Positions 4,863-60,190 of a stretch of DNA of 64,000 bases are shown one piece after another. How positions within the stretch are numbered: position 1 is the first letter of the stretch; each line of letters starts with the position of its first letter. The translations under genes and the position numbers were made by a program. Source of the stretch: Candidatus Falkowbacteria bacterium. GTDB lineage: Bacteria; Patescibacteriota; Patescibacteriia; JACRDY01. Where the stretch lies: the NCBI GenBank assembly GCA_016218485.1, contig JACRDY010000059.1:11529-75528 (forward strand), read 5' to 3'. The notes under the pieces were generated by a model. It searched no databases, was not told the origin of the DNA, and was given only the letters and a program-made list of their open reading frames with translations.

Positions 4863-4984
4863 AATTTTATTTCACCTATCACGTTTATTCTTTGTAATAC
4901 CCCGTCAGCTTGCTGCGGGGTTACCATATAATCCCGAGTCCAGAGCTTGCTCTGGGGTTCAATACCTTTTATTGAGTATTAATC

Positions 4985-5087: not shown

Positions 5088-5960
5088 TTAAATCGCGATG
5101 GGGAATTTAATGGTGGGGTAGCTGGCATAGCCGACTAGTTCGGTATCGGTGTACTGCCAGTCAAAAATATTGGTGAAGTTTTTCGTTTCAATCTTCGGCA
5201 GCGGGTAGGTGCTGGGATCGCGCGACAGCTGTTCATGAGCGCCTTCAACATGATTTACAAAAAGGTGAATGTCAGCTAAAAAGCCGATCAGCCGGCCTTC
5301 GGCAAAGCCACTCTCTTTAGCCAAGAGGTGCAGGAGGAGGGCGTAGCTGGCGATGTTAAACGGCAGACCGAGCATGATATCAACTGAGCGCTGATTCCAG
5401 AGCAGGTTGAGCCGGCCGTTGACGACGGTAACCTGGTACGCCCAGTGACAGGGTGGCAGCGCCATCTGATCCATCATCAGCGGATTCCAGGCGCAGACGA
5501 TCATCCGGCGATCATTGGGATTGGTTTTTAACATCTCCACCATATTTTTCAGCTGATCGCAGCCTTGGTCGGTATAGTTAGTGTCATAGTTATGGTACGG
5601 CGCGTTAAAGTGTCGCCACTGAAAGCCATAGATCGCTCCGAGGTCGCGCTCTTCCGTCATTCTTTTTTTTGATGGTTCGTCATGCCCGTAGGGCGCTTTT
5701 TTGGGGTTAGCCCACTCATCCCAGATGTGGTTATTGTGGTCCAGTAGCCATTGCTTGTCAGTAATACCCTTGATGAAAAATTCCAATTCTGAAGCGATGA
5801 GACGGAGTGGCACCTTCTTGGTTGTCAGCAGGGGATAGCCATTGGCCATGTCGTGCTCAAACATCCCACCGGCAATGGTGTAGGCGTCAGTACCCTGGCG
5901 GGTTTGTTTGATCTGACCCTCGTCGAGCGTTTTTTTAACCAAATCTAAGTATTGTTTCAT
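5088..5960 (-). CDS. thyA: thymidylate synthase
   Basis: 290 aa; KQTRQGTDAYTIAGGMFEHDM, LLTTKKV and other ThyA signatures. Confidence 0.92.
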   Translation of the reverse strand: MKQYLDLVKKTLDEGQIKQTRQGTDAYTIAGGMFEHDMANGYPLLTTKKVPLRLIASELEFFIKGITDKQWLLDHNNHIWDEWANPKKAPYGHDEPSKKRMTEERDLGAIYGFQWRHFNAPYHNYDTNYTDQGCDQLKNMVEMLKTNPNDRRMIVCAWNPLMMDQMALPPCHWAYQVTVVNGRLNLLWNQRSVDIMLGLPFNIASYALLLHLLAKESGFAEGRLIGFLADIHLFVNHVEGAHEQLSRDPSTYPLPKIETKNFTNIFDWQYTDTELVGYASYPTIKFPIAI

Positions 5961-5970
5961 AACAACGCAA

Positions 5971-6396
5971 TTATTTCCTGCCCGTGGAGCCGAATTGGCC
6001 AGTGCCGCGCCGCGCTTCGCTCAATTCAGCCGTCTCCGTTAGCTCGGCCAGCGCCACCGGGAAAATGACGAGCTGGGCGATCTTGTCGCCGGTTTCAATA
6101 GTGTAGGCTTCGCTGCCCAGATTGATCAGCTGCACATTATACTCGCCGCGGTAGCCGGCATCATAGACCCCGCCCATGGTGTGCAGGCCCGCGTTTTTGG
6201 GCAGGCTGCTCTTGTCTTTGACCATCGCGGCATAGCCACTGTTAAACTCTAGGGCAAAACCCAGATTAAAAATCCGACGTTCACCGACTCGCAGCGTATA
6301 CTGTTCTCGTGAGTACAGATCTAGACCGACATCGCCCGGGTGGGCGTAGGAGGGGAGTTTTACATCGGGGATGAGTTTTTTGATCAAGACCTTCAT
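5971..6396 (-). CDS. dut: dUTP diphosphatase
   Basis: GDVGLDLY and C-terminal RGTGQFGSTG motif; the ATG at 6396 (MKVLIKKL) is preferred over the TTG at 6417. Confidence 0.88.
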   Translation of the reverse strand: MKVLIKKLIPDVKLPSYAHPGDVGLDLYSREQYTLRVGERRIFNLGFALEFNSGYAAMVKDKSSLPKNAGLHTMGGVYDAGYRGEYNVQLINLGSEAYTIETGDKIAQLVIFPVALAELTETAELSEARRGTGQFGSTGRK

Positions 6397-6417
6397 GGAA
6401 ATAAGTTCAAAGTTCAA

Positions 6418-6560
6418 AAGTTATAAAGTTGAAAGTTCAAAGTCCAAAATCCCAAGTTCAAAGTTCAAATCAAGTTCAAAGTTTTAAGTTCAAATGCCAA
6501 ATCAGCGCATTGTTTGAACTTTGTCATTAGGTATTGATTTGAACTTTGGATTTTGAACTT
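6418..6560. repeat. AT-rich palindromic repeat (gttcaaagt arrays; caaagttcaaaatccaaatgacaaatcaa / rc)
   Basis: Same element at 14325-14450 and 45398-45525. Confidence 0.75.
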
Positions 6561-7126
6561 TAGTTATTTTTTGCTTTAATAGTTTTCAGAATGTCCTCAA
6601 TCTGCTGGTGCAGCTGTTCAATCGTGCCGTTGTTGTTAATCGTGAAGTTGGCAGTCTGGCCGGTTTCCAGGATGTGGATTTCCGCTTCGGCTCGTTCATC
6701 CTGCTGGAATTGTTCAAAGGTTTTACTGGTATCATCAACGTTTTCTCCGCGTTTGATGATTCGTTCGTAGCGAATTGGTTGATCAGCGGTTAGGTAAATG
6801 AGGGAGAAGCCGGCGAACCGTCGCAGGTATTTGATGTCCGGTTCACGGCGGACGCCGTCAACGGCGATCAGTTCGGCCGAATCTTTATTGACGTCTTCGG
6901 CAATCACCCGCGCCAGCGTGTCTTGGCCAAAATTTTTACGCAATGTTTGCGACATGTGCTGCATATTATCGCGGACGATCGGCAGGTACAAGCGGCCGAG
7001 GATATCGCGCAGTATGCCGGAAAACCGGTATGACGGCGCGCCGTATTTCTCCTTGAGATACTGGCAGGCGGTGCCTTTGCCACTGGAGATTTCGCCGACA
7101 AAGCCGAGGATGATTTTATTGGCCAT
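6560..7126 (-). CDS. P-loop nucleotide kinase (dNMP-kinase-like)
   Basis: 188 aa; GFVGEISSGKGT P-loop at the N-terminus; embedded in the thymidylate cluster; family assignment tentative. Confidence 0.55.
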   Translation of the reverse strand: MANKIILGFVGEISSGKGTACQYLKEKYGAPSYRFSGILRDILGRLYLPIVRDNMQHMSQTLRKNFGQDTLARVIAEDVNKDSAELIAVDGVRREPDIKYLRRFAGFSLIYLTADQPIRYERIIKRGENVDDTSKTFEQFQQDERAEAEIHILETGQTANFTINNNGTIEQLHQQIEDILKTIKAKNN

Positions 7127-10355: not shown

Positions 10356-10420
10356 AGGTATTTCGTTCAGTGGTGCGTGCGTCCGCCGCGGCGGACTCCC
10401 ACGGTTAGTTAGTTGTCAGT
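10356..10420 (-). promoter_or_regulatory. rplA 5' leader with conserved structured element (GUGGGAGUCCGCCGCGGCGGACGCACGCACCAC)
   Basis: ~45 nt identical to the rplK leader; contains the 16-bp palindrome gtccgccgcggcggac. Confidence 0.5.
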
Positions 10421-10490
10421 TAGAAAGTTGAAAGTTATAAAGTTAAAAGTACAAAACTTTCAACTTTATAACTTTATAATTTTAAACTTT
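10420..10490. repeat. agttataaagtt-family palindrome between rplK and rplA (terminator-like)
   Basis: Inverted repeat read directly. Confidence 0.6.
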
Positions 10491-10911
10491 ATTCCACCAT
10501 AATCCCCATCTGTCGGGCCGTGCCTTCAATAATGCGCATGGCGGCATTGATGTCATGAGCGTTGAGATCAACCATTTTTTTCTCGGCGATCTCTCTCACT
10601 TGAGCGCGGGTGACTTGGCCGACTTTTTCTTGCAGCGGTTTGCCTGAACCTTTGGCTACACCCGCGGCTTTTTTTAAGAGTTCAGCGGCCGGCGGAGTTT
10701 TGAGAATAAAGGTGTAGGTGCGATCCTCGTAGATGGTGATTTCACAGGGAGTAATGTCACCCGGCATTTGCTTGGTGGCTTCATTAAATTTACTGCAGAA
10801 TTCACTGATGTTCACGCCATGCTGGCCGAGCGCCGGGCCGACCGGCGGCGCCGGGTTGGCTTGCGCGCCCGGGATCTGCAGCTTGACGATTGTTTTGATT
10901 TTCTTAGCCAT
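10489..10911 (-). CDS. rplK: 50S ribosomal protein L11
   Basis: 140 aa; [35 protein letters not shown]. Confidence 0.95.
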
Positions 10912-10975
10912 ATACGTTTCGTTAAGTGGTGCGTGCGTCCGCCGCGGCGGACTCCCACGGTTGTTAGTTAAAAGT
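10912..10975 (-). promoter_or_regulatory. rplK 5' leader carrying the same structured element as the rplA leader
   Basis: gtgcgtgcgtccgccgcggcggactcccacgg on the + strand, identical to 10370-10410. Confidence 0.5.
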
Positions 10976-11041
10976 TAGAAAGTTGAAAGTTATAAAGTTG
11001 AAAGTTTTGTACTTTTAACTTTATAACTTTCAACTTGTAAC

Positions 11042-11587
11042 TCAGATTTTTTTTACTTGCAGGAAATCCAGCTCCACCGGTGTCTCGCGGCCGAACATAG
11101 AGACGAGCGCCTTGATCTTGCCGCGGGTTTCATCAATCTCGGAAATTTTTCCTTCAAAGTTTTTGAACGGGCCGTCCACGATGCGGATGGGCTGGCCGAT
11201 AGAGAGGTCAATGGTGTAGGTTGGCTCTTCCACGCCCTTGCGTTTCATGATAGCTTCCACTTCTTTTTTGGACATGGGCGTCGGCACCGTGCCGGAGCTG
11301 GTGAAGCCGGTGACGTTGGGGGTATTGCGCACCACGTACCAGGAATCATCAGTGACGGTCATTTCCACCATGATGTAGCCGGGGAAGATTTTTTCCTCAA
11401 TGACTTTCCGTTTACCATTTTTGATTTTGATCTTTCGCTCAGTCGGAATAACCACGTTAAAAATTTTGTCGTCCATACCCATGGAGACAATTCTGGACTT
11501 GAGGTCTTCCACCACTTTTTCCTCATAGCCGGAGTAGGTGTGAATGACGTACCAGCGGCGGCCGAGCTGTAGTGTTTGTTTTGGCAT
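11042..11587 (-). CDS. nusG: transcription termination/antitermination factor NusG
   Basis: 181 aa; NGN domain plus KOW (GQPIRIVDGPFKNFEGKISEID). Confidence 0.92.
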   Translation of the reverse strand: MPKQTLQLGRRWYVIHTYSGYEEKVVEDLKSRIVSMGMDDKIFNVVIPTERKIKIKNGKRKVIEEKIFPGYIMVEMTVTDDSWYVVRNTPNVTGFTSSGTVPTPMSKKEVEAIMKRKGVEEPTYTIDLSIGQPIRIVDGPFKNFEGKISEIDETRGKIKALVSMFGRETPVELDFLQVKKI

Positions 11588-11831: not shown

Positions 11832-11845
11832 AGTGTTTAAAATAA

Positions 11846-11947
11846 ATCCAGCACCTTCCAGAATACCCCATCAGCTTGCTGTGGGGGTGAATGGCTGAGA
11901 GAGTATGCCTGCAGTGTGTACTACCCCGACAGGAAGGTGCTGGATTT
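11846..11947. repeat. atccagcaccttccagaatacccc...ggaaggtgctggat palindromic repeat (long form with a gaatggctgagagagtat extension)
   Basis: Copies at 28771-28831, 31128-31245 and 51177-51237; partial at 4885-4935. Confidence 0.8.
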
Positions 11948-12789: not shown

Positions 12790-13200
12790 TAGAAGTAGGG
12801 AGGTTACTAATACGTTCCTCTCCTTACCAAGGAGAGGGCAGGTGAGGTTGCCGGAGCCTTCGGTCCCTACCCAAGGGGTGCTCGACGGTCTCCTCCTCTT
12901 ACAAGGTTCGCCGCAGGCAACCGAAGTAAGGGGAGGGACAGGGTGGGGTTAAGTTTACTGTATCGCAAAAAGTTTAAAGTATTTCGCATTGATTAGACTG
13001 CAAACCCCCTCCTGTCCTCCCCCTTATGAATAAGGGGGAGAGACGTGCTACCCCCGAACCCCACGTTACTTATTCTGTTTTCTTTTTGAATTTTATCTAG
13101 CTCTGACGGGGTAGGCAACATAGGAGGGTAATAGCCCGTCCTCCTCCTTACCAAGGAGAGGAACGCTCTAGCCTCGGCTCCACTGGACTTATTCTGTTTT
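12790..13200. repeat. GC-rich mosaic repeat cluster
   Basis: Contains ctctccttaccaaggagag twice, ggttgccggagccttcggtc, aaggggagggacagggtgggg, cctcctgtcctcccc and cttattctgttttc twice. Confidence 0.75.
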
Positions 13201-13273: not shown

Positions 13274-14323
13274 ATGGATATCAACCAATTTTTCTCGACC
13301 GCCATTACCAAGGGCGCTTCAGACGTTCACCTGGTGGCCGGGCACAAACCGACTGTCAGAATTTTTGGCAAGCTGCAGGAAATAGACGCTAGCGCGAGCG
13401 CGCTGGATAACGCGGAATTAACCAAGGGTATTTTTGGTCTCTTAACCAAAGAGCAGGTGGGGCGGTTTGAGCGCGAGTGGGAGCTGGACTTCGCCTACCA
13501 GGTGGATCACACCCGCTTCCGCGTCAACCTGCACTACCAGCTGGAGCAGATCGGCCTGGCCGCGCGTCTGGTGCCCAAAGATATCCCCACGCCGGCCGAG
13601 ATTAACCTGGAGCCGGTGCTCTACGAGCTGACGCACCTCAACCAGGGGTTCATCCTCGTCACCGGACCGACCGGCAGCGGTAAATCCACCACCATTGCCA
13701 GCATGCTCAATATTATCAATACCGAGCGGCGGTCGCACATCATTACCCTGGAAGATCCGATTGAGTTCATTTACCCCAAGCAGCAGAGTATCGTGGAGCA
13801 GCGCGAAGTCGGCCGCGACACCAAAACTTTCCACGCCGGGCTGAAGTATGTCCTGCGCCAGGATCCTAACGTCATCCTGATTGGCGAAATGCGCGACCCG
13901 GAGACCATCGCCGCCGCCCTGACCGCGGCCGAGACCGGGCACTTGGTTTTTTCCACCCTGCACACCAATTCGGCGGCCGAGACCGTGGAGCGGATCATTG
14001 ATTCGTTTGACTCCGAGCGGCAGCGCCAGATCCTGATCCAGCTTGGTTCGGCTTTGAAGGCGGTCGTGACGCAGCAGCTGGTGCCGACCGTGGAAGACAA
14101 GGTGACGGTGGCGCGGGAAATTATGATCAATACGCCCGCCATCGCCAACCTCATCAGGCAGAATAAGATCGCCCAGATTCCCTCGGTCATCCAGACCGGC
14201 CGTAATGATGGCATGATGACGATGAGCGCGGCGCTCAAAAATCTCTACAACAACGGACTGATTTCCGCCGATGTCTACCAGCACCGGCTGGTGAGCAGTG
14301 AGAAGGTGGGAAGTTACTTTTAG
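13274..14323 (+). CDS. pilT: type IV pilus retraction ATPase PilT
   Basis: 349 aa; GFILVTGPTGSGKSTT Walker A plus Asp box and His box of the PilT/PilU family. Confidence 0.9.
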   Translation: MDINQFFSTAITKGASDVHLVAGHKPTVRIFGKLQEIDASASALDNAELTKGIFGLLTKEQVGRFEREWELDFAYQVDHTRFRVNLHYQLEQIGLAARLVPKDIPTPAEINLEPVLYELTHLNQGFILVTGPTGSGKSTTIASMLNIINTERRSHIITLEDPIEFIYPKQQSIVEQREVGRDTKTFHAGLKYVLRQDPNVILIGEMRDPETIAAALTAAETGHLVFSTLHTNSAAETVERIIDSFDSERQRQILIQLGSALKAVVTQQLVPTVEDKVTVAREIMINTPAIANLIRQNKIAQIPSVIQTGRNDGMMTMSAALKNLYNNGLISADVYQHRLVSSEKVGSYF

Positions 14324-14324
14324 T

Positions 14325-14450
14325 TGAAAGTTCAAAGTTCAAAATCCAAATGACAAATCAATGCCAAATGACAAAGTTCAAAAGGTGCGACTATTAGGCA
14401 TTTAAACTTTGAACTTGATTTGAACTTTTGATTTTGAACTTTGAACTTAA
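14325..14450. repeat. AT-rich gttcaaagt palindromic repeat
   Basis: Near-identical to 6418-6560 and 45398-45525. Confidence 0.75.
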
Positions 14451-16668: not shown

Positions 16669-16669
16669 A

Positions 16670-16810
16670 TTGTTACATTGCTACATTGCCAAATTGCCAA
16701 ATGGTCATTCTGTTATATTGCTATATGGTTATACTGTTAAATACCCCACCAAACAATATAACAGTATAGCAATGTGACAATTTAGCAATTTGGCAATGGA
16801 GCAATGTATT
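16670..16810. repeat. Palindromic repeat built from attgcca/attgcta heptamers
   Basis: ttgctacattgccaaattgccaaatgg...ccatttggcaat-like arms; related copy at 32650-32740. Confidence 0.65.
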
Positions 16811-18704: not shown

Positions 18705-19769
18705 ATGCCAACGACGAAAGTCATGGCCGAGTATGTCTGGATGGATGGCCGGACGCCAACCGCCAAGCTGCGCTCAAAAACCAAAGTGATTGACGGGCCC
18801 ATTGGGCAGCTGTCGGATATCCCGCTGTGGGGTTTTGACGGCTCCAGCACCGAGCAGGCCGAGGGTCATTTTTCCGACTGCCTGCTGCAGCCGGTTTATT
18901 TTTTGCCTGATCCGGTGCGCGGGTTACCACATATTTTGGTTATGAGTGAGGTGCTGAACCCTGACGGTACGCCGCATCCGAGTAACACTCGGACGGTTTT
19001 ACGAAAGGTAACTGAACAGTACGCCGTCGCCGAGCCGCTGGCCGGCATTGAGCAGGAGTACACGTTGTACTACCAAGATCGTCCGGTCGGCTGGCCGGAG
19101 CGTGGGTTTCCGCACCCGCAGGGCCGCTACTACTGCGGCGTCGGCGCTGACGAAGTTTACGGCCGTGTTTTGGTTGAAGATCACATGAAGGCCTGTTTAG
19201 CCGCTGGCATTGCTCTGTCTGGGGTGAATGCCGAAGTCATGCCCGGTCAGTGGGAATTTCAGGTCGGCGCGTTGCCGCCGCTAGAATTGGCTGACCAACT
19301 GTGGCTGTCGCGCTGGCTCATCTACCGTCTGGGCGAAAATCATCAGTTCCATGTTAAGCTGGATCCCAAACCCATGCCGGGCGACTGGAATGGCGCCGGC
19401 GGACACACCAATTTTTCCACCAAAGCCATGCGTGAAGCAGGAGGCCTGCAGGCCATTGAAGCGGCTTGTCAGAAATTAGGCCAATTCCATAAGCAACATA
19501 TCGCTATTTATGGCGCGGACAATGACAAGCGTCTGACCGGCAAGCACGAGACGTGCGGTATCCGTGAGTTCCGCTTTGGCGTGTCGGATCGCGGCGCTTC
19601 CATCCGCATTCCGGCGGCGACCGCTAAGCAGCAACGCGGCTACCTGGAAGACCGCCGGCCGGCGGCAAATCTGGATCCGTACCAGATCCTGACGGCGCTT
19701 TTAGAGACGATCTGCGGCAGCGGTTTCGATCCCGCCAAGTATGGCTGGCAGCCGCAGGTGGTGATTTAA
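18705..19769 (+). CDS. glnII: glutamine synthetase type II (eukaryote-like GSII)
   Basis: 354 aa; AEYVWMDG...LWGFDGSSTEQAEG...SDC N-terminal GSII signature; length typical of GSII. Confidence 0.85.
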   Translation: MPTTKVMAEYVWMDGRTPTAKLRSKTKVIDGPIGQLSDIPLWGFDGSSTEQAEGHFSDCLLQPVYFLPDPVRGLPHILVMSEVLNPDGTPHPSNTRTVLRKVTEQYAVAEPLAGIEQEYTLYYQDRPVGWPERGFPHPQGRYYCGVGADEVYGRVLVEDHMKACLAAGIALSGVNAEVMPGQWEFQVGALPPLELADQLWLSRWLIYRLGENHQFHVKLDPKPMPGDWNGAGGHTNFSTKAMREAGGLQAIEAACQKLGQFHKQHIAIYGADNDKRLTGKHETCGIREFRFGVSDRGASIRIPAATAKQQRGYLEDRRPAANLDPYQILTALLETICGSGFDPAKYGWQPQVVI

Positions 19770-19789
19770 CCTTCTCTTACTCTAAAACA

Positions 19790-19835
19790 AAAAATCGCCC
19801 TTCAGCTTACGCTCAGGGCGTTTTTTTTGTTTAAT
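19790..19835. terminator. Rho-independent terminator after glnII (cgccct-tcagcttacgctc-agggcg + T8)
   Basis: Read directly; a sequence-related hairpin is at 20420-20462. Confidence 0.7.
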
Positions 19836-19839
19836 AAAA

Positions 19840-20400
19840 GAGGAGCACGTAGCCCGTTCCTCTCCAATCCATCAGAGAGGTCAGCCTGCCCCGCCCCGCA
19901 TTGTGCGGGGTGCGGGGCGAGGCAAGGGTGGAGGTTGCCGGAGTTTTTTAATCTCCTCCGAAGCGGGGCAGCACGTCTCCTCCCCTTGCGAGGTTCACCG
20001 AAGGTGACCGAAGTAAGGGGAGGGACAGGGTGGGGTTTTTATTGCTCTCACTCCCACCGTTATATCTAGTTCCACCGTTTGGGTGCTACCCCTCCGCGGG
20101 GGCTCGTTACTTTCTGCCTGCCCGCCACAACTTCGCAGATATTGGCGGGTAGCTTTGGCAGGCGGGTAACCAACTCCCACCCCCACCCATCAGGGCTTGA
20201 GCCCCTCAGGGCCGAAGGCCGCCCCCGTAAGCTTCCCCCGCACAATGCGGGGCAGGGGGAGACCCGCCCACTTCCACCCGCTCCGCGCCCACCCGCCGGT
20301 AGCCACTCCAGTACCCTGTCTGCTCCCTCGCGTCGCTCGGGGCAGTTGCCACCCCGAACCCCACCGGACTTATTTTGTTGGATGGTTGATGGTGGTTGAT
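19840..20400. repeat. Largest GC-rich mosaic repeat cluster (~560 bp)
   Basis: Contains ccccgcattgtgcgggg twice (both orientations), aaggggagggacagggtgggg, ggttgccggag, and ccgaaccccaccggacttattttgtt. Confidence 0.75.
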
Positions 20401-20419
20401 TGTAAGAAGGTAAATAAAA

Positions 20420-20462
20420 ACCGCCCCTCGGCTTATGCTCAAGGCGATTTTTTTATTTTCAA
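20420..20462. terminator. Hairpin + T-run (ccgcccctcggcttatgctcaaggcg), terminator-like, on the typA side
   Basis: Read directly. Confidence 0.5.
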
Positions 20463-20470
20463 AATAAAAG

Positions 20471-22285
20471 TTACTGCCGCTGGCCCATAGTCTTGCGCCG
20501 TTCGTCCGCGGCGTTGAGGATTTTTTTGCGGAGGCGGATGCTCTGGGGGGTGATTTCCACCAGCTCATCGTCGCCGATATACTCCAGAGCATCTTCCAGT
20601 TCCATGATTTTTGGCGCGTCAAAGTGCTCGTCAGAGCCTTCACCCTTGGAGCGCATATTGGTCAGCTGTTTGCCTTTACAGACATTGACCACCAGATCTT
20701 TTTCTCTGGCGTGCTGGCCGACAACTTGGCCTTGGTAGACGACCACGCCGGGTCCGAAGAACAGGCGGCCGCGCTGTTGGGCGTTAAGCAGGCTGTAGAG
20801 CGCGGTGGTGCCTGATTCGTGCGCCACCAGGCTGCCGCGATCGCGCTCCGGCCAGGCGCCGGAGTCAGGTCGGTAATCGGCAAAAATACTATTGATGATG
20901 CCCAGACCCTTGGTGTCAATCATGAATTCGCCCTTGTAGCCGAAGAGGCCGTAGGTGGGGATGAGGAAGTGGAGGAAGGTGATGTTGTTTTCGGTGTGCA
21001 TATTTTGCAGTTGGGCGTGGCGCGCTGAGAGTTTGGCGATGACCGCGCCGCTGGAGACGTCCGGCACTTCAATATGCACGTCTTCCCACGGCACCAGCGT
21101 CTGGCCGTCCACCTCTTTGGTAATGACCTGGGGGCGGGAGACCTGGACTTCATAGCCGTCGCGCCGCATGCGCTCTAAGAGAATGGCCAAATGTAGCTCG
21201 CCGCGGCCGGAGACAGTCCAGCCGCCTTCGCCGCGCGGCTCCACGCGCAGCGCCATGTCGGTTTCCAGCTCTTTATTCAGCCGCTCATTGATCTGGCGCG
21301 AGGTGACGTATTTTCCTTCCGTTCCGGCCAGGGGTGAATCATTGACCAGAATGTTAATTTTGACCGTCGGCTCTTCAATATGCAATGTCGGCAGAGCCAT
21401 GGGGTTATCAATATCGGCCACGGTTTCGCCAATATCAATTTCGGGAATACCGGCAATGGCGGCAATGTCGCCGGCCAGGACTTCCGGCACTTCCACCCGG
21501 TCCAGCCCGACATAGGTCATCAAACTGCTCAAGCGGTAGGGAGTGATGACACCCTGGCGGTTGATCAGGTTGACGCGCTCGCCGGCGGTCAGTTTGCCGT
21601 TGTGGACACGACCGGTGGCGATGCGGCCTTTGAAGTCATTAGCGGTGATGGAAGTGGCCAAGAATTGCAGGGGCGCGGCCGCCTCGCCGGTCGGCGGCGG
21701 CACTTCTTTGAGAATGGTGGCAAACAGCGGGGTGATGTCTTTCATATCAGCGATGGTGGGGGTCAGTCCGGCGAGGCCTTGTTTGGCCGAGGCATAAACA
21801 ATAGGGAAGTCGGTCAGGTGGTCGCTGGCGCCCAGCTCAATAAACAGGTCAAAAGTTTTATTGAGCGCGTAGTCAGGCCGGGCGTCGGGTTTGTCAATTT
21901 TATTAATCACCACGATGACTCGGTGGCCCAGCTCCAGGGCTTTTTTCAGGACGAAGCGGGTCTGCGGCATGGGGCCTTCTTTGGCATCCACCAGCAGCAG
22001 GTAGCCGTCGGCCATCTTCAAGACACGCTCCACTTCGCCCCCAAAGTCGGCGTGACCCGGCGTGTCAATGATATTGATCTTGTGTCCCTGCCAGGTGATG
22101 GCGGCGTTTTTGGAAAAAATAGTAATACCGCGCTCGCGCTCCAGCTCGTTGGAGTCCATGATCAGTTCCGAACCGGCGTCCTTGTGTAATTTGGTATCAG
22201 ATTGGGTCAGCAAAGCATCCACCAGCGTGGTCTTGCCGTGGTCAACGTGAGCGATAATGGCGATATTACGGATGTCAGTTTTCAT
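20471..22285 (-). CDS. typA: translational GTPase TypA/BipA
   Basis: 604 aa; [14 protein letters not shown]1 motif; EF-G-like domain order; aaggag RBS. Confidence 0.92.
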
Positions 22286-22470
22286 AGCTCCTTATATTAC
22301 ATTTCTGAGTCTCGCCCGGCACCTTCGGCGATACAACATATATTTTTACCTAAAACGGAAGGCGCCAGCCGCTTTACCAAACATACCTTGTTTAAAACTC
22401 CTTGGCGGAATGGAAGGTGCGGGGTGGTCAACGTGAGCGATAATGGCGATGTTACGGATGTCAGTTTTCA
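22286..22470 (-). promoter_or_regulatory. typA leader carrying a 48-nt duplicate of the typA start (41-codon u[19 protein letters not shown]...) and a long hairpin
   Basis: 22421-22470 duplicates 22238-22285 with one mismatch; the uORF runs 22470 to ~22345 on the minus strand. Confidence 0.5.
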
Positions 22471-22477
22471 TATTGAG

Positions 22478-22725
22478 TATCTAGTATCTAGTATCTGGTA
22501 TCTAGGGAAAAGTCACTGCTGTAAGTTAATTTTAGATATTCAACTTTAGATGCCGTCTATGAAAAAGCGCTGACGAGCAGCGTAGCCTTAAATCAGACGA
22601 GCAAAATATATCAGACTTTAGCAAAATAAGCAAGGTAAGTAGAGGAGGTGTCTCATAATCTAGGTGATTTTCCCAGATACCAGATACCAGATACCAGATA
22701 CTAGATACCAGATACTAAATACGGT
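22478..22725. repeat. ~250-bp element bounded by inverted tandem heptamer arrays (tatctag x4 ... ccagata x6)
   Basis: Read directly; MITE-like architecture. Confidence 0.6.
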
Positions 22726-22741
22726 ATACTGTAGGTAATTT

Positions 22742-23359
22742 ATGATCGCCGTTATCATTGACTGGCTGGCGCAGATTATTATCGCCGTTATTTCCTGGCT
22801 GGGGCATCCCGGCGTTTTTGTGCTGATGGCGCTGGAGAGCTGCGGTTTGCCTATTCCCTCGGAAATCATCATGCCGTTTGCCGGTTTTTTGGTCACGACC
22901 GGTCGATTATCGTTCTGGTTGGTGGTCGCCATGGGCGCGCTGGGCAATTTGGCCGGGTCGCTCTTGGCCTACTGGATTGGCTGGCGGGGCGGCCGTCCGC
23001 TGATTGAGCGCTACGGCAAGTATATTCTCTTGTCACATCGAGACTTGGATTTGGCGGAGCGCTGGTTTGGCCGCTATGGCGATGTGGTGGTGTTTTTCGG
23101 CCGGCTGTTGCCGGTGGTGCGCACCTATATTTCTTTTCCGGCCGGTCTGGCGCAGATGAATCTAAAAAAGTTCGCTTTTTACACCACCCTGGGCAGTCTG
23201 CCCTGGAGTCTGCTGTTTGCCGCTCTGGGAGTCAAGATGGGGGACAACTGGTCGGCGGTACGGCAGTGGCTGCACGATTTTGATCTGGCTATTGTCGGTT
23301 TGCTGGTTCTTTTGGTGGTACTGTTTATTTTTCGCCATCGTCGTCAGAGAGTCGGTTAA
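22742..23359 (+). CDS. DedA family membrane protein
   Basis: 205 aa; GVFVLMALESCGLPIPSEIIMPFAGFLV DedA/SNARE-associated signature. Confidence 0.85.
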   Translation: MIAVIIDWLAQIIIAVISWLGHPGVFVLMALESCGLPIPSEIIMPFAGFLVTTGRLSFWLVVAMGALGNLAGSLLAYWIGWRGGRPLIERYGKYILLSHRDLDLAERWFGRYGDVVVFFGRLLPVVRTYISFPAGLAQMNLKKFAFYTTLGSLPWSLLFAALGVKMGDNWSAVRQWLHDFDLAIVGLLVLLVVLFIFRHRRQRVG

Positions 23360-23590: not shown

Positions 23591-26500
23591 ATGATACGGC
23601 GATTCTACCGACGTGAGCGAGCGGGATTTGAGTGGTGTTTTTATGTGGCGCTGTCCGCGGTACTGACGGCGGCGCAGGAAGAAGCGCTGCGTTGGCTGTT
23701 GGCGGAGACCTTTGCTCCCGGAGAGTTTGGCGAGCAGTCGCTCCTGACAGGCGAGTTTGAGGGGCCGGGGCGGATCGTGGAGATTGGTCCGCGGCTCAAC
23801 TTTGAGACTCCCTGGTCCAGTAACGCGGTGGCTATCTGCCACAATTGCGGACTGCACCAGGTGATCCGCTTGGAACGTTCCCGGCGGTATCTATTGCCGG
23901 CGGCGGTGGACGTGACGGCTTTCGTAGGAGGGCACCATGACCGGATGACCGAGATGGTCTACCGGCAGCCGCTGGACAGCTTGGTGATTGACCTGCAGCC
24001 GCAGTCGGTGCGGATCATTCACGTGCTGGAGCACGGGCGCGCCGCTCTGCGACAGATCAGCCAGGAGCTGGGTCTGGGATTTGACGAGCAGGACGTGGAA
24101 TACTACCACTACCTGTTTGTTGAATTGATGGGACGCGATCCCACCGACGTGGAACTGTTCCAACTGGCGCAGATGAACAGCGAACACTGCCGCCATTGGT
24201 TCTTCAAGGGGCGGCACATCATCAACGGGCAGGAGAAGCCCGGGACACTCTTGGATCTGATTCGTTCAACCTGGCAGGCCAATTCGGGTAATAGCGTTAT
24301 CGCCTTTAGCGATAACTCTAGCGCCATTCGGGCGCTGGCGGCGGTGGATACACTATTACCGCGACATGCCGGGCAGCCTTCAGCGATGCAGTTGTTGTCG
24401 TGGTGGTTACACGCGGTGCTCACAGCCGAGACGCACAACTTCCCGTCCGGCGTGGCGCCGGTTCCCGGCGCCGAAACCGGTACCGGCGGACGTCTGCGTG
24501 ATAACCACGCCACGGGTCGGGGCGCTTTTAGCTGCGCCAGTACGGCCGGGTTCATTACCGACAATCTGCATCTGCCGGGGTATCGTATTCCCGGTGAGCC
24601 GGATCATGACGTGGCGCATCCCACGACACTTGCTTCACCCTTGGAGCAGCAGATGGGAATGCCCAGAGGCGCCTTTGACTACGGCAACAAGTACGGTGAG
24701 CCTAATGTCGGAGGGTTTGCGCGGACGTTTGGTCTCTTTTTTCCTGACGGTGAACGTCGCGGAGCCTTCAAGCCCACGATGTTTACCGGTGGCCTGGGTT
24801 GGTTGCCTGATCAACAGACGAAGAAGGCGCCTCCGGCTCCGGGTATGCTGATCATCGGCATTGGCGGTCGGGCTTTCCGGATCGGACTCGGCGGCGGGTC
24901 GGCTTCCAGCATGACGCAGGGGGACAATCGCGCGGATCTAGACTTCAACGCGGTACAGCGCGGTGACCCGGAAACGAAACAGTGCGTCTGGCGCCTCATT
25001 CGCGCCTGTGTTGAGATGGGTATAGACAATCCCATTTTGAACATTCACGATCAAGGGGCCGGTGGTCCCTGCAACGTGCTGACCGAGCTGATGGAACCGG
25101 CCGGTGGCCGGATTGACATTCGTCAGATCAAGCTCGGCGATCAGACGCTGTCGGTATTGGAGATCTGGGGTGCGGAATATCAGGAGCGATACGGCTTGCT
25201 GATTGACCCCAAAAATCTCGCTCTCTTTCAGGCGATTTGCGAGCGTGAGAAAGTTTCCTGTGAAGTACTCGGTGAGGTCACCGGTGACGGTCGGGTGGTA
25301 GTCTATGACTCGCAGACCGAAACAACGCCGGTGAATCTTGATTTGCGGCAAGCCTTGACGCAGACGCCGCAAAAAACGTTTAAGGACGAGACTAGGCCGC
25401 TGCGGTTGGAGCCGCTGCGGATTCCTCCTGACTTGACGGTACGTGAGGCGTTGCGTTCGGTCTGGCAGCTCGTGGCAGTCGGTTCCAAAGAGTGGTTGAC
25501 GCATCAGGTTGACCACTCGGTCGGCGGACTAGTGGCGCGGGCGCAAGCCTGTGGTCCTCTTGGTTTGCCGGTGGCGGATAGCGCCGTGTTGGCGGCTAGT
25601 CACTTCGGTCTGACGGGGATGGCCACGGCGATCGGCGAACAGCCGGTCAAAGGGTTGATTTCTCCGGCAGCGGGCGGCCGTATGGCCGTGGCGGAAGCTT
25701 TGCTTAACTTGGCCGGAGCGCTCATTTCCGGCATCCGTGACATCAAAGCGTCGGTCAACTGGATGTGGCCGGCGAAATTCCCCGGTGAGGCTGACCGTCT
25801 CTGGCAAGCGGCCGAGGCGCTGACGACACTGATGAAGCAGATCGGCATGGCGGCTGACGGCGGCAAGGACAGTCTGTCCATGGCGGCCAGGCTGGATGAC
25901 GGTACGCTCGTCAAGTGTCTGGGCCAAGTGGTGGTGTCCGCCTACGTGACGGTAGCGGATATCAGGCAGGTGGTGACGCCGGACCTTAAGCCGGGCGACA
26001 GTCGGTTGGCGCTCTTGGAAGTGTCACCCGGTAAACAGCGGCTCGGCGGTACGGCTCTGGCGCAAGCGCTCGGGCAACTGGGCGATGACGCGCCCGACGT
26101 AGACAATCCGCTGCTGCTGGCCCAGAGCTTTCAGTTCGTCCAAGAATTGATCCGTCGCAATCTGTTGCTAGCCTGTCATGATGTCAGTGATGGCGGCCTC
26201 ATTACCGCTGTGGCGGAGATGGTCATGGCGGGGCAGCGTGGCTGCAGCCTGCAGCTCTCTGGGCAGCAGGGCGTATTCGCCCAGCTGTTCAATGAGGAGC
26301 CGCAGCTGGTGCTGCAGATGGCGGAAACGGACTATGCCGAGGTTCAATCGTTGGCCTTGGTTTACAACGTAGCGCTGACGTCAATCGGTCACACCGTAGC
26401 GGCGCCACGATTGTTCGTCACTTTTGAGGGAGAGACTGTGCTCTACGAGAGTTTGTCTGAATTACTGCGCCGGTGGCGGAAAACCAGCGATCGGCTGGAA

Positions 26501-27409
26501 GCTGAAAATATCGGTGAGGAGCTGGCGGCTCAACAGTCGCAGCATTGCGGTCAGCCTCCGTCATATCAATTAACCTTCACGCCGGAGCCGACTCTGCCAT
26601 TGTGGCTTCAGGGCAATCAGCCCAGAGTCGCGGTTATCCGTGAGGAAGGCAGTAATGGTGATCGGGAAATGGCCGCCGCGTTCCATCTGGCAGGTTTTGA
26701 GACTTGGGACCTGACCATGACTGACCTCTTGGCGAGGCGGGTGACACTGGATCAGTTCCGCGGTGTTGTCTTTGTCGGCGGGTTCTCTTACGCCGACGTT
26801 CTGGACAGCGCCAAGGGCTGGGCCGGGGTTATCCGTTTCAATCCCCAGCTGCGGGAGATGTTCGATCGGTTCTACGACCGGCCGGACACGTTCTCGCTCG
26901 GCGTCTGCAATGGTTGCCAGCTGATGGCGTTGTTGGGTTGGGTGCCCTGGAAAGGATTGCCCGATGTCCAGCAGCCGCGGTTTATCCATAACCGCTCCGG
27001 CCGGTTTGAGTCACGGTTGGTCACGGTCGGCATCGACCCCAGTCCGGCCATGATGCTGCAGGGTATGGCCGGGTCGCGTCTGGGCGTCTGGGTGGCTCAC
27101 GGTGAAGGACGGTTGCACTGTCCTGATCCTACGTTACTCGCCGACATCACGGCGCGACATCTCACGCCACTGCTGTATTGTGATCACCAGGGTACGGCGA
27201 CGGAGACCTACCCGTTCAATCCCAACGGTTCGCCGATGGGTATTGCCGGGCTGTGTTCTGCCGACGGCCGCCATCTGGCGGTTATGCCGCACCCGGAACG
27301 GATGTTCCAGTTGTGGCAGTGGCCGTATCTGCCGCCGGAGTGGCAGGGACTGCCAGCCTCGCCCTGGCTCCAGATGTTTCAGAATGCTCGCCGCTGGTGC
27401 GGCGAGTAG
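23591..27409 (+). CDS. purL: phosphoribosylformylglycinamidine synthase, large single-chain form (FGAM synthetase + glutaminase)
   Basis: 1272 aa; PurM-like duplicated core and C-terminal class-I amidotransferase domain (VIREEGSNGDREMAAAF...GVCNGCQ). Confidence 0.9.
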   Translation: MIRRFYRRERAGFEWCFYVALSAVLTAAQEEALRWLLAETFAPGEFGEQSLLTGEFEGPGRIVEIGPRLNFETPWSSNAVAICHNCGLHQVIRLERSRRYLLPAAVDVTAFVGGHHDRMTEMVYRQPLDSLVIDLQPQSVRIIHVLEHGRAALRQISQELGLGFDEQDVEYYHYLFVELMGRDPTDVELFQLAQMNSEHCRHWFFKGRHIINGQEKPGTLLDLIRSTWQANSGNSVIAFSDNSSAIRALAAVDTLLPRHAGQPSAMQLLSWWLHAVLTAETHNFPSGVAPVPGAETGTGGRLRDNHATGRGAFSCASTAGFITDNLHLPGYRIPGEPDHDVAHPTTLASPLEQQMGMPRGAFDYGNKYGEPNVGGFARTFGLFFPDGERRGAFKPTMFTGGLGWLPDQQTKKAPPAPGMLIIGIGGRAFRIGLGGGSASSMTQGDNRADLDFNAVQRGDPETKQCVWRLIRACVEMGIDNPILNIHDQGAGGPCNVLTELMEPAGGRIDIRQIKLGDQTLSVLEIWGAEYQERYGLLIDPKNLALFQAICEREKVSCEVLGEVTGDGRVVVYDSQTETTPVNLDLRQALTQTPQKTFKDETRPLRLEPLRIPPDLTVREALRSVWQLVAVGSKEWLTHQVDHSVGGLVARAQACGPLGLPVADSAVLAASHFGLTGMATAIGEQPVKGLISPAAGGRMAVAEALLNLAGALISGIRDIKASVNWMWPAKFPGEADRLWQAAEALTTLMKQIGMAADGGKDSLSMAARLDDGTLVKCLGQVVVSAYVTVADIRQVVTPDLKPGDSRLALLEVSPGKQRLGGTALAQALGQLGDDAPDVDNPLLLAQSFQFVQELIRRNLLLACHDVSDGGLITAVAEMVMAGQRGCSLQLSGQQGVFAQLFNEEPQLVLQMAETDYAEVQSLALVYNVALTSIGHTVAAPRLFVTFEGETVLYESLSELLRRWRKTSDRLEAENIGEELAAQQSQHCGQPPSYQLTFTPEPTLPLWLQGNQPRVAVIREEGSNGDREMAAAFHLAGFETWDLTMTDLLARRVTLDQFRGVVFVGGFSYADVLDSAKGWAGVIRFNPQLREMFDRFYDRPDTFSLGVCNGCQLMALLGWVPWKGLPDVQQPRFIHNRSGRFESRLVTVGIDPSPAMMLQGMAGSRLGVWVAHGEGRLHCPDPTLLADITARHLTPLLYCDHQGTATETYPFNPNGSPMGIAGLCSADGRHLAVMPHPERMFQLWQWPYLPPEWQGLPASPWLQMFQNARRWCGE

Positions 27410-28735: not shown

Positions 28736-28770
28736 GTTCAAAGATTGAATTGGTGGTAGCATTCATCTTT

Positions 28771-28831
28771 ATCCAGCACCTTTCAGAATACCCCGTCAGT
28801 TTGCTGCGGGGTATTCTGAAAGGTGCTGGAT
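28771..28831. repeat. atccagcacctttcagaatacccc...ggaaggtgctggat palindromic repeat (short form)
   Basis: Perfect ~28-bp arms. Confidence 0.8.
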
Positions 28832-30535: not shown

Positions 30536-31125
30536 AAGATTTCAAGAAACAAAGAATCAATCGGTAAGTATTGTTTCGTTGCTTATTTGCTTCTTTGTTT
30601 CTTGGCCCCCCTGTTTCTTGGCCCCCTTGACTATTCAGGCGTAATTATTCTAAGATAACAAAATCCCAGACCGCGGAGGGTGTGGTCTCGAAGGACCTGG
30701 TCCTCAAACAGGATGCCTGTATTGCCTATTCGGGCCAGTGACGACATTCTCTGACACCATGGCAGCACCGTTTCTCCATTCGGGGCGCAATAGAGTGGGC
30801 GTTGCCCAAAAGCCCTGGGAGCGCAGAAACGAAGCGAGCAATGGCGATGAGACGCCGTCTAGGCCCGGATTCATCGGGCTCACCATGAATCAGAGGGACC
30901 CTTCGAGCCCTCCCTCCCGCGGTCGTTCACACGACACGAAAGCCCTCGCCCAACCACGATGATAAAAAAGTGTCTCCTAGTAGGACTCCAAATTCCCGGG
31001 TAGACACTTCCGGGGTCATCTGGTTGGGCGAGGTGCCCCTCCATTTTCATTCAGCCGATAGAATATCCGTTTAGAATATCCGTTTATAGCGGGTTTTTAT
31101 TTTTTTTGCTATACTGGTAATAGTA
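30536..31125. other. ~590-bp non-coding stretch of unknown nature (candidate structured RNA or decayed gene)
   Basis: No convincing ORF; internal palindromes (aggacctggtcct; duplicated ttcttggccccc; duplicated gaatatccgttta); did not match tmRNA, RNase P or SRP RNA consensus on inspection. Confidence 0.3.
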
Positions 31126-31127
31126 TA

Positions 31128-31245
31128 ATCCAGCACCTTCCAGAATATCCCGCAGCAAGCTGACGGGGTATTCTGGAAGGTGCTGGATGAATGGCTGAGA
31201 GAGTATTTCTGTGGCGTGCACTACCCCGACAGGAAGGTGCTGGAT
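31128..31245. repeat. atccagcaccttccagaata... palindromic repeat (long form)
   Basis: Near-identical to 11846-11947. Confidence 0.8.
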
Positions 31246-32649: not shown

Positions 32650-32740
32650 ATTAAAAATCTTGTTAAATTGCCACATTGCCAAATTGTCGCACTGTTGTGT
32701 GAGGTATTTAACAATGTAGCCATGTGACAATGTAACAATA
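32650..32740. repeat. attgcca-heptamer-based palindromic repeat upstream of uvrB
   Basis: Related to 16670-16810. Confidence 0.6.
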
Positions 32741-35119: not shown

Positions 35120-35231
35120 AAAAACAAACCCGTTCGCAATAGCGGGAACGGATTTGTTTGACGGTTCCAGGTTTGACACTTGAATATTACCAGTATAACA
35201 AAGTATATTGTTGTGTCAATGGAATAGGTGT

Positions 35232-35300
35232 GGAGCTAAGGGGAATCGAACCCCTGTATTCAAGTGTCAGGCTGGAATACCGCCACCAGGCATAGCTCCA
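35232..35300 (-). tRNA. tRNA-like gene with canonical acceptor and T-arm but atypical D/anticodon region; anticodon unresolved (loop CCUGACA)
   Basis: Minus-strand RNA GGAGCUAUGCCUGGUGGCGGUAUUCCAGCCUGACACUUGAAUACAGGGGUUCGAUUCCCCUUAGCUCCA; 7/7 acceptor pairs; GGGGUUCGAUUCCCC T-arm; no CCA; anticodon stem needs a C-U mismatch or a 9-bp stem. Confidence 0.55.
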
Positions 35301-39610: not shown

Positions 39611-39639
39611 AGTTTAGAAATATTTTAACTTTGGTATGG

Positions 39640-39830
39640 TAGGGTGTGTAATAGCCCGTTCCCCTCCTTTCCAAGGAGGGGCCAGGGGCGGTTGCCGGAG
39701 CCTTCGGTCTCTACCCAAGCTTTGTTCGCAGGCCACGGTAGCAGCCAATACCTCGGCAACCTCACCCGTCCTCCCCTTAGAAAGGGGAGGAACGGTCTAT
39801 TCCCGGTTGCCGGAGTTTAAATCCAATATA
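39640..39830. repeat. GC-rich mosaic repeat (cccctcctttccaaggagggg; ggttgccggagccttcggtc; cctccccttagaaaggggagg)
   Basis: Shares modules with 12790-12900. Confidence 0.7.
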
Positions 39831-45383: not shown

Positions 45384-45397
45384 TGTATCGTATACTA

Positions 45398-45525
45398 AAA
45401 TTCAAAGTTCAAAATCCAAATGACAAATCAAGTTCAAAGCCTAAATGTCAAATCAACGCACCTTTTTGAACTTTGTCATTTGGCATTGATTTGAACTTTG
45501 GATTTTGAACTTTGAACTTATCGGG
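45398..45525. repeat. AT-rich gttcaaagt palindromic repeat
   Basis: Near-identical to 14325-14450. Confidence 0.75.
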
Positions 45526-49007: not shown

Positions 49008-50018
49008 ATGGTTCAAAAAGTCCGCGTCGCCATTAACGGTTTCGGTCGCATTGGCCGGGCGGCATTTAAAATTGCTTTAGACAACAAGAAAGTGGAGGTG
49101 GTGGCGATTAATGATCTGGTGGCGCCGTCGGTGCTGGCGTATCTTTTAAAATATGATTCAGTCTACAATACGTACGATAAGAAAGTGACCGCTGACAGTA
49201 AACACGTCATCGTCAATGGCAAGAAGTATCCGGTGTTTCAGGAGCGCGAGCCAAAGAGATTGCCCTGGAAAAAGTTGGGAGTGGATGTGGTTTTGGAGTG
49301 CACCGGATTTTTTCTGGACACGGCCGGGGCCGGACAGCACCTGCGGGCGGGCGCCAAAAAAGTGGTCATCTCCGCACCGGGCAAAGACGATGTGGCCAAC
49401 ACGCACGTCTTCGGCACTCTAGAGACGCAGAAGCATGTTAAGCACGGCCAAGTGGTTTCCAACGCTTCCTGCACCACCAATTGCATCAGCCCGGTGATGC
49501 AAGTCTTGGCCACCGTGTTTGGGATTGAGAAAGCGATGATGACGACCGCGCACGCCTATACCGCGAGCCAGGGGCTGGTTGATGAACCAAACAGCAAGGA
49601 TATGCGTGAAGGCCGCGCGGCGGCAATGAACCTAGTACCCACCCACACCGGCGCGGCGGAGGCGACCGCCAAAGTGGTCCCGGCGCTGCAGGGAAAATTC
49701 ACCGGTATTTCCATCCGCGTGCCCGTGATCTGCGGTTCGTTGTCTGACGTCACCTGTGTTTTGAAAAAAAATGTGACGGCAGAACAGGTCAATAATGCGT
49801 TTCGCCGCGCTGCCAAGCAGCCGCTGTTCAAAAATATTCTGGAAGTTTCCGACGCACCATTAGTTTCCAGTGACATCATTGGCAATCCGCATTCGGCGAT
49901 CGTGGACACGACCTTTACCCGCGTGGTTGACGGTAACTTAGTGAAGGTTTTGGCCTGGTATGATAACGAGTGGGGGTACGCGCACCGGTTGGTGGAGATG
50001 GCGGTGGCAGTAAGTTAG
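49008..50018 (+). CDS. gap: glyceraldehyde-3-phosphate dehydrogenase
   Basis: 336 aa; NGFGRIGR and ASCTTNC active-site motifs. Confidence 0.95.
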   Translation: MVQKVRVAINGFGRIGRAAFKIALDNKKVEVVAINDLVAPSVLAYLLKYDSVYNTYDKKVTADSKHVIVNGKKYPVFQEREPKRLPWKKLGVDVVLECTGFFLDTAGAGQHLRAGAKKVVISAPGKDDVANTHVFGTLETQKHVKHGQVVSNASCTTNCISPVMQVLATVFGIEKAMMTTAHAYTASQGLVDEPNSKDMREGRAAAMNLVPTHTGAAEATAKVVPALQGKFTGISIRVPVICGSLSDVTCVLKKNVTAEQVNNAFRRAAKQPLFKNILEVSDAPLVSSDIIGNPHSAIVDTTFTRVVDGNLVKVLAWYDNEWGYAHRLVEMAVAVS

Positions 50019-50019
50019 T

Positions 50020-50125
50020 AATCAGTAATCAGTAATCAGTAATCAGTAATCAGTAATCAGTAATCAGTAATCAGTAATCAGTAATCAGTAACTAGTTACT
50101 AGTTACTGATTACCAGTTACTTTAT
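50020..50125. repeat. Tandem heptamer array (agtaatc)x10 followed by inverted (agttact)x3
   Basis: Read directly. Confidence 0.9.
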
Positions 50126-51176: not shown

Positions 51177-51237
51177 ATCCAGCACCTTCCAGCATATCCC
51201 GTCAGCGTGCTGCGGGGTATGCTGGAAGGTGCTGGAT
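51177..51237. repeat. atccagcaccttccagcata... palindromic repeat (short form)
   Basis: Family copy. Confidence 0.8.
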
Positions 51238-51339
51238 AAAAATTAGAAATTGGAGAAAAACCCTTTGAAATAAAAGGTTTTTTATTTGCCAAAATAGGGG
51301 ATTCTGGTATAGTTGATGAGGGAGAAATTCAGTATTTCC

Positions 51340-51440
51340 TGCGTTTTAGTTATTGGAAAGAGATTTAGTATATCGTATGTCGTATATGGTATGTGGGGAA
51401 ATTCCCCCATATACCATATACCACATACTATATTCCCCCC
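51340..51440. repeat. gtatatg-heptamer-based palindrome directly upstream of paralog 1
   Basis: tcgtatgtcgtatatggtatgtgggg / ccccatataccatataccacatac. Confidence 0.6.
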
Positions 51441-51441
51441 T

Positions 51442-53091: not shown

Positions 53092-53154
53092 CGCACAGCA
53101 CAGAGCTTATAGCACAAAGCTATGCGCTCTGAGCTCTGTGCTTTGAGCTACTTT
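53092..53154. repeat. Inter-paralog palindromic spacer (gcacagcacaaagc...gctctgagctctgtgctttgagc); same at 54841-54903 and 58418-58477
   Basis: Three near-identical copies read directly. Confidence 0.8.
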
Positions 53155-54840: not shown

Positions 54841-54903
54841 CACACAGCACAAAGCGCAGAGCACAAAGCTATGCGCTCTGAGCTCTGTGCTTTGAGCTAC
54901 TGT

Positions 54904-56565: not shown

Positions 56566-56650
56566 GAACGACACGCCCTCTGGGCGTGTTATGTTTGTTA
56601 CGCGCTCTGTAACCATAACACAGCCAGAGGCTGTGTCGTTCCCTTGGAGG
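56566..56650. repeat. Inter-paralog gacacgccctctgggcgtgttatg...cataacacagccagaggctgtgtc palindrome
   Basis: Same family as 48850-48950 and 60112-60190. Confidence 0.8.
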
Positions 56651-56695
56651 AACAATTTTTGACAAAATTTAAAATCCTGGCTATACTAAAGCATT

Positions 56696-58417: not shown

Positions 58418-58477
58418 TGCACAGCACAAAGCGCACAGCACAAAGCTATGCGCTCTGAGCTCTGTGCTTTGAGCTAT

Positions 58478-60109: not shown

Positions 60110-60111
60110 CA

Positions 60112-60190
60112 AGGGAACGACACGCCCTCTGGGCGTGTTATGTCGGTTACACGCTCTGTAACGATAACACAGCCAGAGGCTGTGTCGCTC
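60112..60190. repeat. Inter-paralog palindrome (same family as 56566-56650)
   Basis: Near-identical. Confidence 0.8.

Follow-up and report, generated by a model that had tools for sequence, protein, structure and literature searches.

Why does the translational GTPase gene typA (bipA) carry its own start twice, and does the extra copy regulate it? The locus lies in a 64,000-nucleotide (nt) stretch of DNA, hereafter the window, from a metagenome-assembled genome (MAG) of an uncultivated Candidatus Falkowbacteria, a groundwater-type bacterium of the Candidate Phyla Radiation (CPR, or Patescibacteria). Upstream of typA, the first codons of the gene are repeated and open a 41-codon upstream open reading frame (uORF), an arrangement that invites comparison with leader-peptide attenuation. 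The feature is real and its explanation is ordinary, another instance of a familiar rearrangement scar. Judged from sequence comparison, the duplicate is probably an inert, recent and lineage-specific scar of this kind and not a conserved regulatory device.

The duplicated typA start

The gene itself is complete, and its product, a ribosome-associated GTPase with GTP_EFTU, EFG_C and BipA_C domains, is 100% identical to MBI5621909.1, 'translational GTPase TypA [Candidatus Falkowbacteria bacterium]'. The features that make up the duplication are as follows.

20471 to 22285, minus strand: typA (BipA) coding sequence, intact, 604 amino acids, from the list of open reading frames
22238 to 22286, minus strand: copy 2 of the direct repeat, the working typA start, found by repeat search and BLAST
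22287 to 22423, minus strand: spacer between the two repeat copies, 137 nt
22288 to 22293, minus strand: Shine-Dalgarno (SD) sequence AAGGAG, 2 nt before the typA ATG
22346 to 22471, minus strand: chimeric uORF of 41 codons, TypA residues 1-16 followed by 25 unrelated residues
22424 to 22472, minus strand: copy 1 of the direct repeat, the stranded typA start, 4 nt from a heptamer array and without an SD sequence

The two copies form a 49-nt direct repeat in the same orientation, identical at 48 of 49 positions and spaced 186 nt from start to start, and a BLAST search of the window with the upstream copy gives an E value of 2.5e-21. Each copy comprises one nucleotide before the ATG and typA codons 1-16 (48 coding nt), with the sole mismatch being synonymous (AAT in typA, AAC in the upstream copy, both Asn) and the longest shared exact run measuring 27 nt. 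This is the only short-range direct repeat of at least 30 nt of unique, non-array sequence in the window. The uORF shares the typA frame (186 = 62 x 3), and two TAA codons (22346-22348 and 22292-22294) separate them; the first of these, the uORF stop, falls inside a hairpin of the spacer, 60 nt from the typA ATG. The junctions of the segment join GACCAC to CCCGCACC and AAGGAGC to TATGAAA, and the insertion point lies between AHVDH and GKT in the P-loop coding stretch, which is highly conserved at the nucleotide level among relatives. An earlier note on this DNA, made from the sequence alone, had described the duplicated start, the 41-codon frame with its exact peptide and a good ribosome-binding site at typA, all of which are borne out; its coordinates were off by 1-3 nt, with 22421-22470 corrected to 22424-22471 and a distance of 185 nt to 186.

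Conservation was assessed against the nearest relatives (P0002/P0003, TypA identity 76-77%; loci L163-L167), using 12-mers of the first 90 nt of typA in the 1.5 kb upstream, and against 153 other typA loci from genome and metagenome scans, using a 15-mer repeat criterion. No 12-mer match occurs upstream of typA in L163-L167, compared with 25 in the window, and no 15-mer repeat is present among the 153 loci. The earlier note had proposed conservation of the uORF in relatives as a check, and neither uORF nor duplicate is found in either set; by this comparison the duplicate is specific to the present lineage.

Several simpler descriptions were considered and rejected. A tandem duplication of a 186-nt unit is excluded because the flanks of the two copies, beyond the 49 nt, are unrelated, and the idea that the spacer derives from typA codons 17-62 by divergence was rejected by eye. 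An intron, an intein or translational bypass does not fit, since the 137-nt spacer contains two in-frame stops and the typA that follows it is intact and SD-led. An insertion sequence or miniature inverted-repeat transposable element was dismissed on three grounds: only one arm of the inverted repeat directly adjoins the direct repeat, the other ending 28 nt short of it; a 49-nt duplication is atypical; and there is no second copy in 64 kb. An integrated element with genes was likewise set aside, with only 137 nt between the repeats.

A related proposal, which we regard as unlikely, takes the 49-nt repeats as attL/attR-like cores of an integrative element, or of a tiny non-autonomous derivative, that entered the typA 5' end with a replacement start for the gene and later decayed to 137 bp. 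Direct repeats of att-like length suit this idea, as does the foreign-looking DNA between them, which restores the gene and supplies an SD sequence, and so does insertion within the conserved P-loop stretch. However, the 137 bp contain no integrase or other gene, the neighbours are simply typA and a dedA-like gene, and the spacer is unique in the window by BLAST. No phage or viral relationship emerges either, with no BLAST match in a phage collection, no match of one 21-mer in IMG/VR, and three hits of one 20-mer that are all chance matches inside GC-rich coding regions. In Escherichia coli icd, the elements e14 and phage 21 leave the 3' end of the gene duplicated around a multi-kb, integrase-bearing insert. 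The present locus resembles these cases in that part of the target gene occurs in two directly repeated copies, the gene remains intact and the extra copy is a pseudo-fragment; it differs in that the 5' end is duplicated, around a gene-less 137 bp. Its layout is closest to such partial gene duplications at insertion or recombination sites.

The duplicate could also be an assembly artefact, a contig that fuses the typA upstream regions of two strain variants or includes a chimeric read, an explanation given little credence here. It gains something from the genome being a MAG and from the independent Logan assembly of SRR12113407 (same strain), which is fragmented around the locus and for which a full-length typA product is not recorded. 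Exact-product look-ups in the contig collection returned neither TypA nor the uORF, and a protein search with TypA residues 1-250 brought up no fragment of the same strain. Four points oppose it. The junction of GACCAC with CCCGCACC is in neither putative haplotype and would have to be created de novo, the one-base difference between the copies fits two real loci, and assembly k-mers are usually far longer than the longest exact repeat, so that the copies should be resolvable. Additionally, the Logan breaks that can be checked fall at arrays and palindromes on either side rather than at the duplicate, with contig L161 starting exactly at the array (array R below) beside the divergent gene.

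Promoter, heptamer arrays and start context

The region upstream of the duplicate contains the following features.

22476 to 22505, no strand assigned: heptamer array L, AGTATCT repeated 4.3 times, inverted relative to array R, in the predicted typA 5' untranslated region
22563 to 22583, minus strand: conserved typA leader hairpin with T-run (ACGCTGCTCGTCAGCGCTTTT), at the same place in relatives
22605 to 22633, minus strand: predicted typA promoter, with -35 box TTGCTT (22633-22628), 17-nt spacer with TG (22613-22612) and -10 box TATATT (22610-22605)
22673 to 22722, no strand assigned: heptamer array R, CCAGATA repeated 6-7 times, ending 20 nt before the divergent gene
22742 to 23359, plus strand: divergent gene for a DedA/VTT-domain membrane protein, neighbour of typA

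The promoter assignment is based on alignment and scanning. The window sequence TTGCTT-N14-TGATATATT aligns with TTGACA-N14-TGGTATATT of the relatives (L163-L167), and on the typA strand this conserved site also comes out best in a relaxed promoter scan, which detects nothing promoter-like between the duplicate and typA. Transcription most likely starts at this promoter, about 125 nt upstream of the uORF, with a predicted start near 22598 that would place the duplicate inside a leader of about 310 nt. With the best-ranked, conserved site ahead of the duplicate and no other before typA is reached, the uORF is probably part of the typA mRNA. The earlier note had set the duplicate within a leader, and on this point the predicted promoter speaks in its favour.

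Both the window and the relatives share the motif ACGCTG-N5-CAGC-NN-TTTT about 20 nt past the -10 box. It matches once in the window, where 0.06 matches are expected by chance, and of the loci retrieved only L163-L167 carry it. If conserved regulation of typA exists, it more likely sits in this short terminator-like hairpin just after the promoter.

Arrays L and R bracket a promoter core of 167 nt (22506-22672), not the duplicate or the spacer hairpin. The core has no second copy in the window and lines up with the promoter and leader hairpin that precede typA in relatives lacking such arrays; it is therefore resident and not foreign. The alignment thus presents the arrays as additions around a resident promoter, not as the ends of a mobile insert. 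The description of a leader bounded by heptamer arrays was loosely right, the arrays being real and inverted, although what they flank is the promoter core; the further proposal of a heptamer-flanked mobile element fails.

Start contexts across the window bear on which of the two typA starts is older. Strong SD sequences with a GGAG/GAGG core precede only 3 of the 41 window genes (typA, 23591 and 29009), whereas a tandem array lies within 25 nt of the start codon in 11 of 41. The upstream copy follows the second pattern, with array L, then 'caat', then the ATG, and no SD sequence; its context is thus of the native type for this genome, in which most genes lack an SD. The divergent pair 11587 (minus)/13274 (plus) has the same symmetrical layout, with inverted TAGTCCT arrays abutting both ATGs, and typA of the nearest relative (L163) is likewise without an SD. 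Given this native, array-led context and the SD-less start in L163, the upstream ATG (22471) is probably the ancestral typA start and the hairpin-plus-SD segment the newcomer.

Arrays of this kind are common in the window, where about 19 pairs of inverted tandem heptamer or octamer arrays occur, each pair with a unit sequence of its own. Examples are found at 869-946, 6403-6561, 9140-9173/9563-9612, 10418-10492, 10966-11042, 11595-11646/13226-13271, 14322-14448, 16669-16808, 18172-18195/18330-18348, 22476-22505/22673-22722, 32665-32739, 45397-45519, 50008-50121, 51368-51433, 62412-62541 and 63798-63890. They fill intergenic space up to the gene boundaries, lying within 25 nt of stop codons for 12 of 41 genes in addition to the starts counted above. 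Some pairs form short-loop hairpins after genes and others bracket 70-1600 nt, and divergent gene pairs carry the same heptamer in the same sense in both 5' regions. A few such arrays are also present in the relatives L163 and L166, and those of the window are places where the same-strain Logan contigs break off. Comparable TAACTGA heptamer repeats are described from marine Beggiatoaceae, intergenic and upstream of genes, and from cyanobacteria (PMC4679880). Like arrays L and R, those are tandem heptamers in intergenic or 5' untranslated sequence beside start codons; unlike them, the arrays here vary in heptamer from locus to locus, form inverted pairs, also abut stop codons and belong to another phylum (CPR).

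The promoter-proximal hairpin also recurs more widely. In many CPR lineages the typA leader has a promoter and, about 20-30 nt or less beyond it, a short GC hairpin and a U5-8 tract, with the hairpin often of the form YCNGCUG-loop-CAGCGG and the U-tract often ending 2-15 nt before an SD-less ATG. A hairpin with a T-run ending within 50 nt of the typA start is present in 20 of 46 CPR-like loci versus 2 of 109 other loci (Fisher p = 1e-10, with CPR genome compactness uncontrolled). Instances lie at 22563-22633 (minus) of the window, at 3820-3890 in L163 and at 3780-3850 in L166, with further hairpins upstream of typA in L081, L084, L085, L086, L087, L156, L009, L007, L090, L094 and L159. The element has no entry in Rfam and is a candidate attenuator or 5' stabiliser/standby element.

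The spacer hairpin and the case for regulation

The spacer folds into a self-contained structure flush with the junction of the upstream repeat.

22313 to 22426, minus strand: compound hairpin with the 12-nt inverted repeat CCCCGCACCTTC / GAAGGTGCCGGG as its closing stem, its 5' arm abutting the end of the upstream repeat

With a length of about 112 nt, the compound hairpin has a predicted energy of -41.9 kcal/mol (z = -2.9), matched in stability by 1 of 200 shuffles. Read in the typA sense, the spacer opens with CCCGCACCUUC, which pairs with GAAGGUGCCGGG about 100 nt further on. For the 3' arm GAAGGUGCC there are two possible partners, CCCGCACCUUC and GGCGCCUUC. The second pairing, GGCGCCUUC/GAAGGUGCC (ggcgccttc/gaaggtgcc), reaches -17.5 kcal/mol when folded alone; the full spacer prefers the outermost arm CCCGCACCUUC. 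The hairpin singled out in the earlier note corresponds to this alternative pairing, so that it exists but gives way to the compound hairpin in the full spacer. After the compound hairpin come 28 nt that include AAGGAG, with the SD sequence 17 nt past the hairpin. Membership of the spacer in the palindrome families of the window (ATCCAGCACCTTCCAG...) was also considered, and the only match, the 10-nt GCACCTTCCA, is unconvincing.

These elements could be read as a regulatory leader peptide, in which ribosomes translating the uORF would open the 5' arm, stop at the UAA in the hairpin and shift the partner of the 3' arm, tuning typA transcription or translation. The position of the uORF downstream of the only good promoter, its native start context, its stop in a stable hairpin and the two partners available to GAAGGUGCC are all in keeping with this. 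Leader-peptide attenuators of the trp, his and pheST type combine a short leader ORF, a hairpin and alternative pairing of the 3' arm, and the locus shares with them a short ORF in the 5' leader that overlaps a hairpin whose 3' arm has two possible partners. Unlike them, it lacks a terminator U-tract and a run of regulatory codons, its SD is not sequestered, and its peptide, which starts out as the N-terminus of TypA itself, is not conserved among the relatives.

The predicted structures lend no support to attenuation. Neither alternative pairing forms a terminator or masks the SD: no U-tract follows either hairpin, the tail reading CGAGACUCAGAAAUG, and a terminator scan of 22286-22423 on the typA strand found none. 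The typA SD and ATG are unpaired or weakly paired in both the minimum-free-energy and centroid folds. Folding of the complete 331-nt leader is no more stable than that of shuffled sequence (z = -0.02), no Rfam family matches it even at E <= 10, the uORF contains no run of codons informative for a cognate metabolite, and its stop is too far from the typA ATG for translational coupling to be likely. Together with the missing conservation, these results leave a regulatory leader peptide improbable, and the attenuation of BipA put forward in the earlier note is not upheld. Little effect of the uORF on typA is expected from the folding model, in which the ribosome-binding site of typA stays accessible, 60 nt beyond the uORF stop.

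A bolder variant treats the stranded start as a newborn regulatory uORF: it would retain the native, array-led and SD-independent initiation site of typA, and ribosomes loading at that site would melt the 112-nt hairpin, terminate inside it and set the supply of ribosomes to the new SD-led start. We consider this highly improbable. If true, it would offer a snapshot of a leader peptide arising from duplication of a gene start in a CPR bacterium.

Origin, surroundings and meaning of the duplicate

For the rearrangement scar, the following course is proposed. Ancestral typA would have started at ATG 22471, directly behind array L and without an SD sequence. A 186-bp segment would then have been placed after codon 16, consisting of the 137-bp piece with the hairpin and AAGGAG and a second copy of the first 49 nt. 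The route may have been one-sided homologous recombination with an illegitimate join, in which another typA leader allele was patched in, or a template switch during replication. The outcome would be an intact typA with an SD-led start, while the old start was stranded as a 41-codon in-frame uORF ending at the UAA in the hairpin; this stub would be transcribed and might well be translated, giving a functionless peptide. The sequence of events, the mode of recombination and the expression of the stub are all inferred. Homology-facilitated illegitimate recombination and template switching produce one homologous and one illegitimate junction. Insertions of this type would account for the combination of stub, new leader and intact gene, with the process here deduced and no donor allele found. 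The earlier note had offered the scar of a partial duplication as its alternative; the scar is indeed the better reading, although its tie to a heptamer-flanked mobile element was wrong.

Five considerations weigh against this account. The window, the phage collection and IMG/VR yielded neither a donor nor a second copy of the 137-nt spacer. The polarity may be the opposite, with the hairpin and SD ancestral and the array and stub the newcomers. The protein search gives a next-best TypA that is only 77% identical, and scans of genomes and metagenomes yielded no relative closer than about 68-79%, which makes the proposed age and polarity of the event provisional. A translation-dependent structural switch is possible, given a uORF that is in frame, natively started and probably in the mRNA, with two competing 5' arms. 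Finally, 49-bp direct repeats 137 bp apart should be prone to deletion, and their persistence could mean recency or selection.

Another proposal, very unlikely in our estimate, is that the repeats act as a deletion-prone switch. Recombination or slippage between them would drop 186 bp in frame, convert the SD-led start to an array-led one and generate heterogeneity in TypA level across the population. The product would be an intact typA, since 186 nt equal 62 codons and the mismatch is synonymous. Such a loss is, however, irreversible and hence not a true switch.

The surroundings of typA contain several observations in their own right. A gene-less stretch of 700 nt (19770-20470), GC-rich (up to 69%) and dense in nested GC-rich palindromes, separates the typA stop from the glutamine synthetase gene. 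Logan contig L162 ends within this stretch, which has no Rfam match, and related repeat pieces occur at 12795-12884, 13123-13161 and 39639-39728. In L163, the 77% relative, a LAGLIDADG_3-domain ORF (5870-6439, minus strand; weak Pfam match) lies directly downstream of typA and has no counterpart in the window. The genome also encodes a type II-like glutamine synthetase with Gln-synt_N/C domains (18705-19769) and a 1272-residue single-chain phosphoribosylformylglycinamidine synthase (PurL, 23591-27409), both of a kind often missing in CPR bacteria.

A family of near-perfect palindromes of about 60 nt (ATCCAGCACCTTCCAGAATACCCCGTCAGC...GCTGCGGGGTATTCTGGAAGGTGCTGGAT) lies beside gene ends at 4875-4920, 11841-11886, 28766-28830, 31123-31190 and 51172-51235, with a second common segment (GAATGGCTGAGAGAGTAT...ACTACCCCGACAGG) attached to or nested in them at 11883-11945 and 31189-31233. 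Further along, 51313-61841 holds six tandem paralogous genes for proteins of about 546-592 amino acids with conserved Cys-rich stretches (for example, C-terminal ...VYCEECYQKEIY). Three of these genes are preceded by a CACAGCACAAAGC-type array, and 78-nt palindromes lie between genes at 56565 and 60114, with another at 48856. At 35231-35299 (minus strand), a borderline tRNA covariance match (29.8 bits against a gathering score of 29), not called by ARAGORN, may represent a degenerate or unusual tRNA.

Read as a rearrangement scar, the locus would provide a clean case in which a small rearrangement strands an old start as a uORF and exchanges the translation-initiation signal of a gene. It also cautions annotators against taking duplicates of this kind for regulatory devices. 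Beyond typA itself, it points to two features of this genome and the wider CPR, the pervasive paired heptamer arrays at gene boundaries and the promoter-proximal, terminator-like hairpin before typA, both of which merit study of their own.

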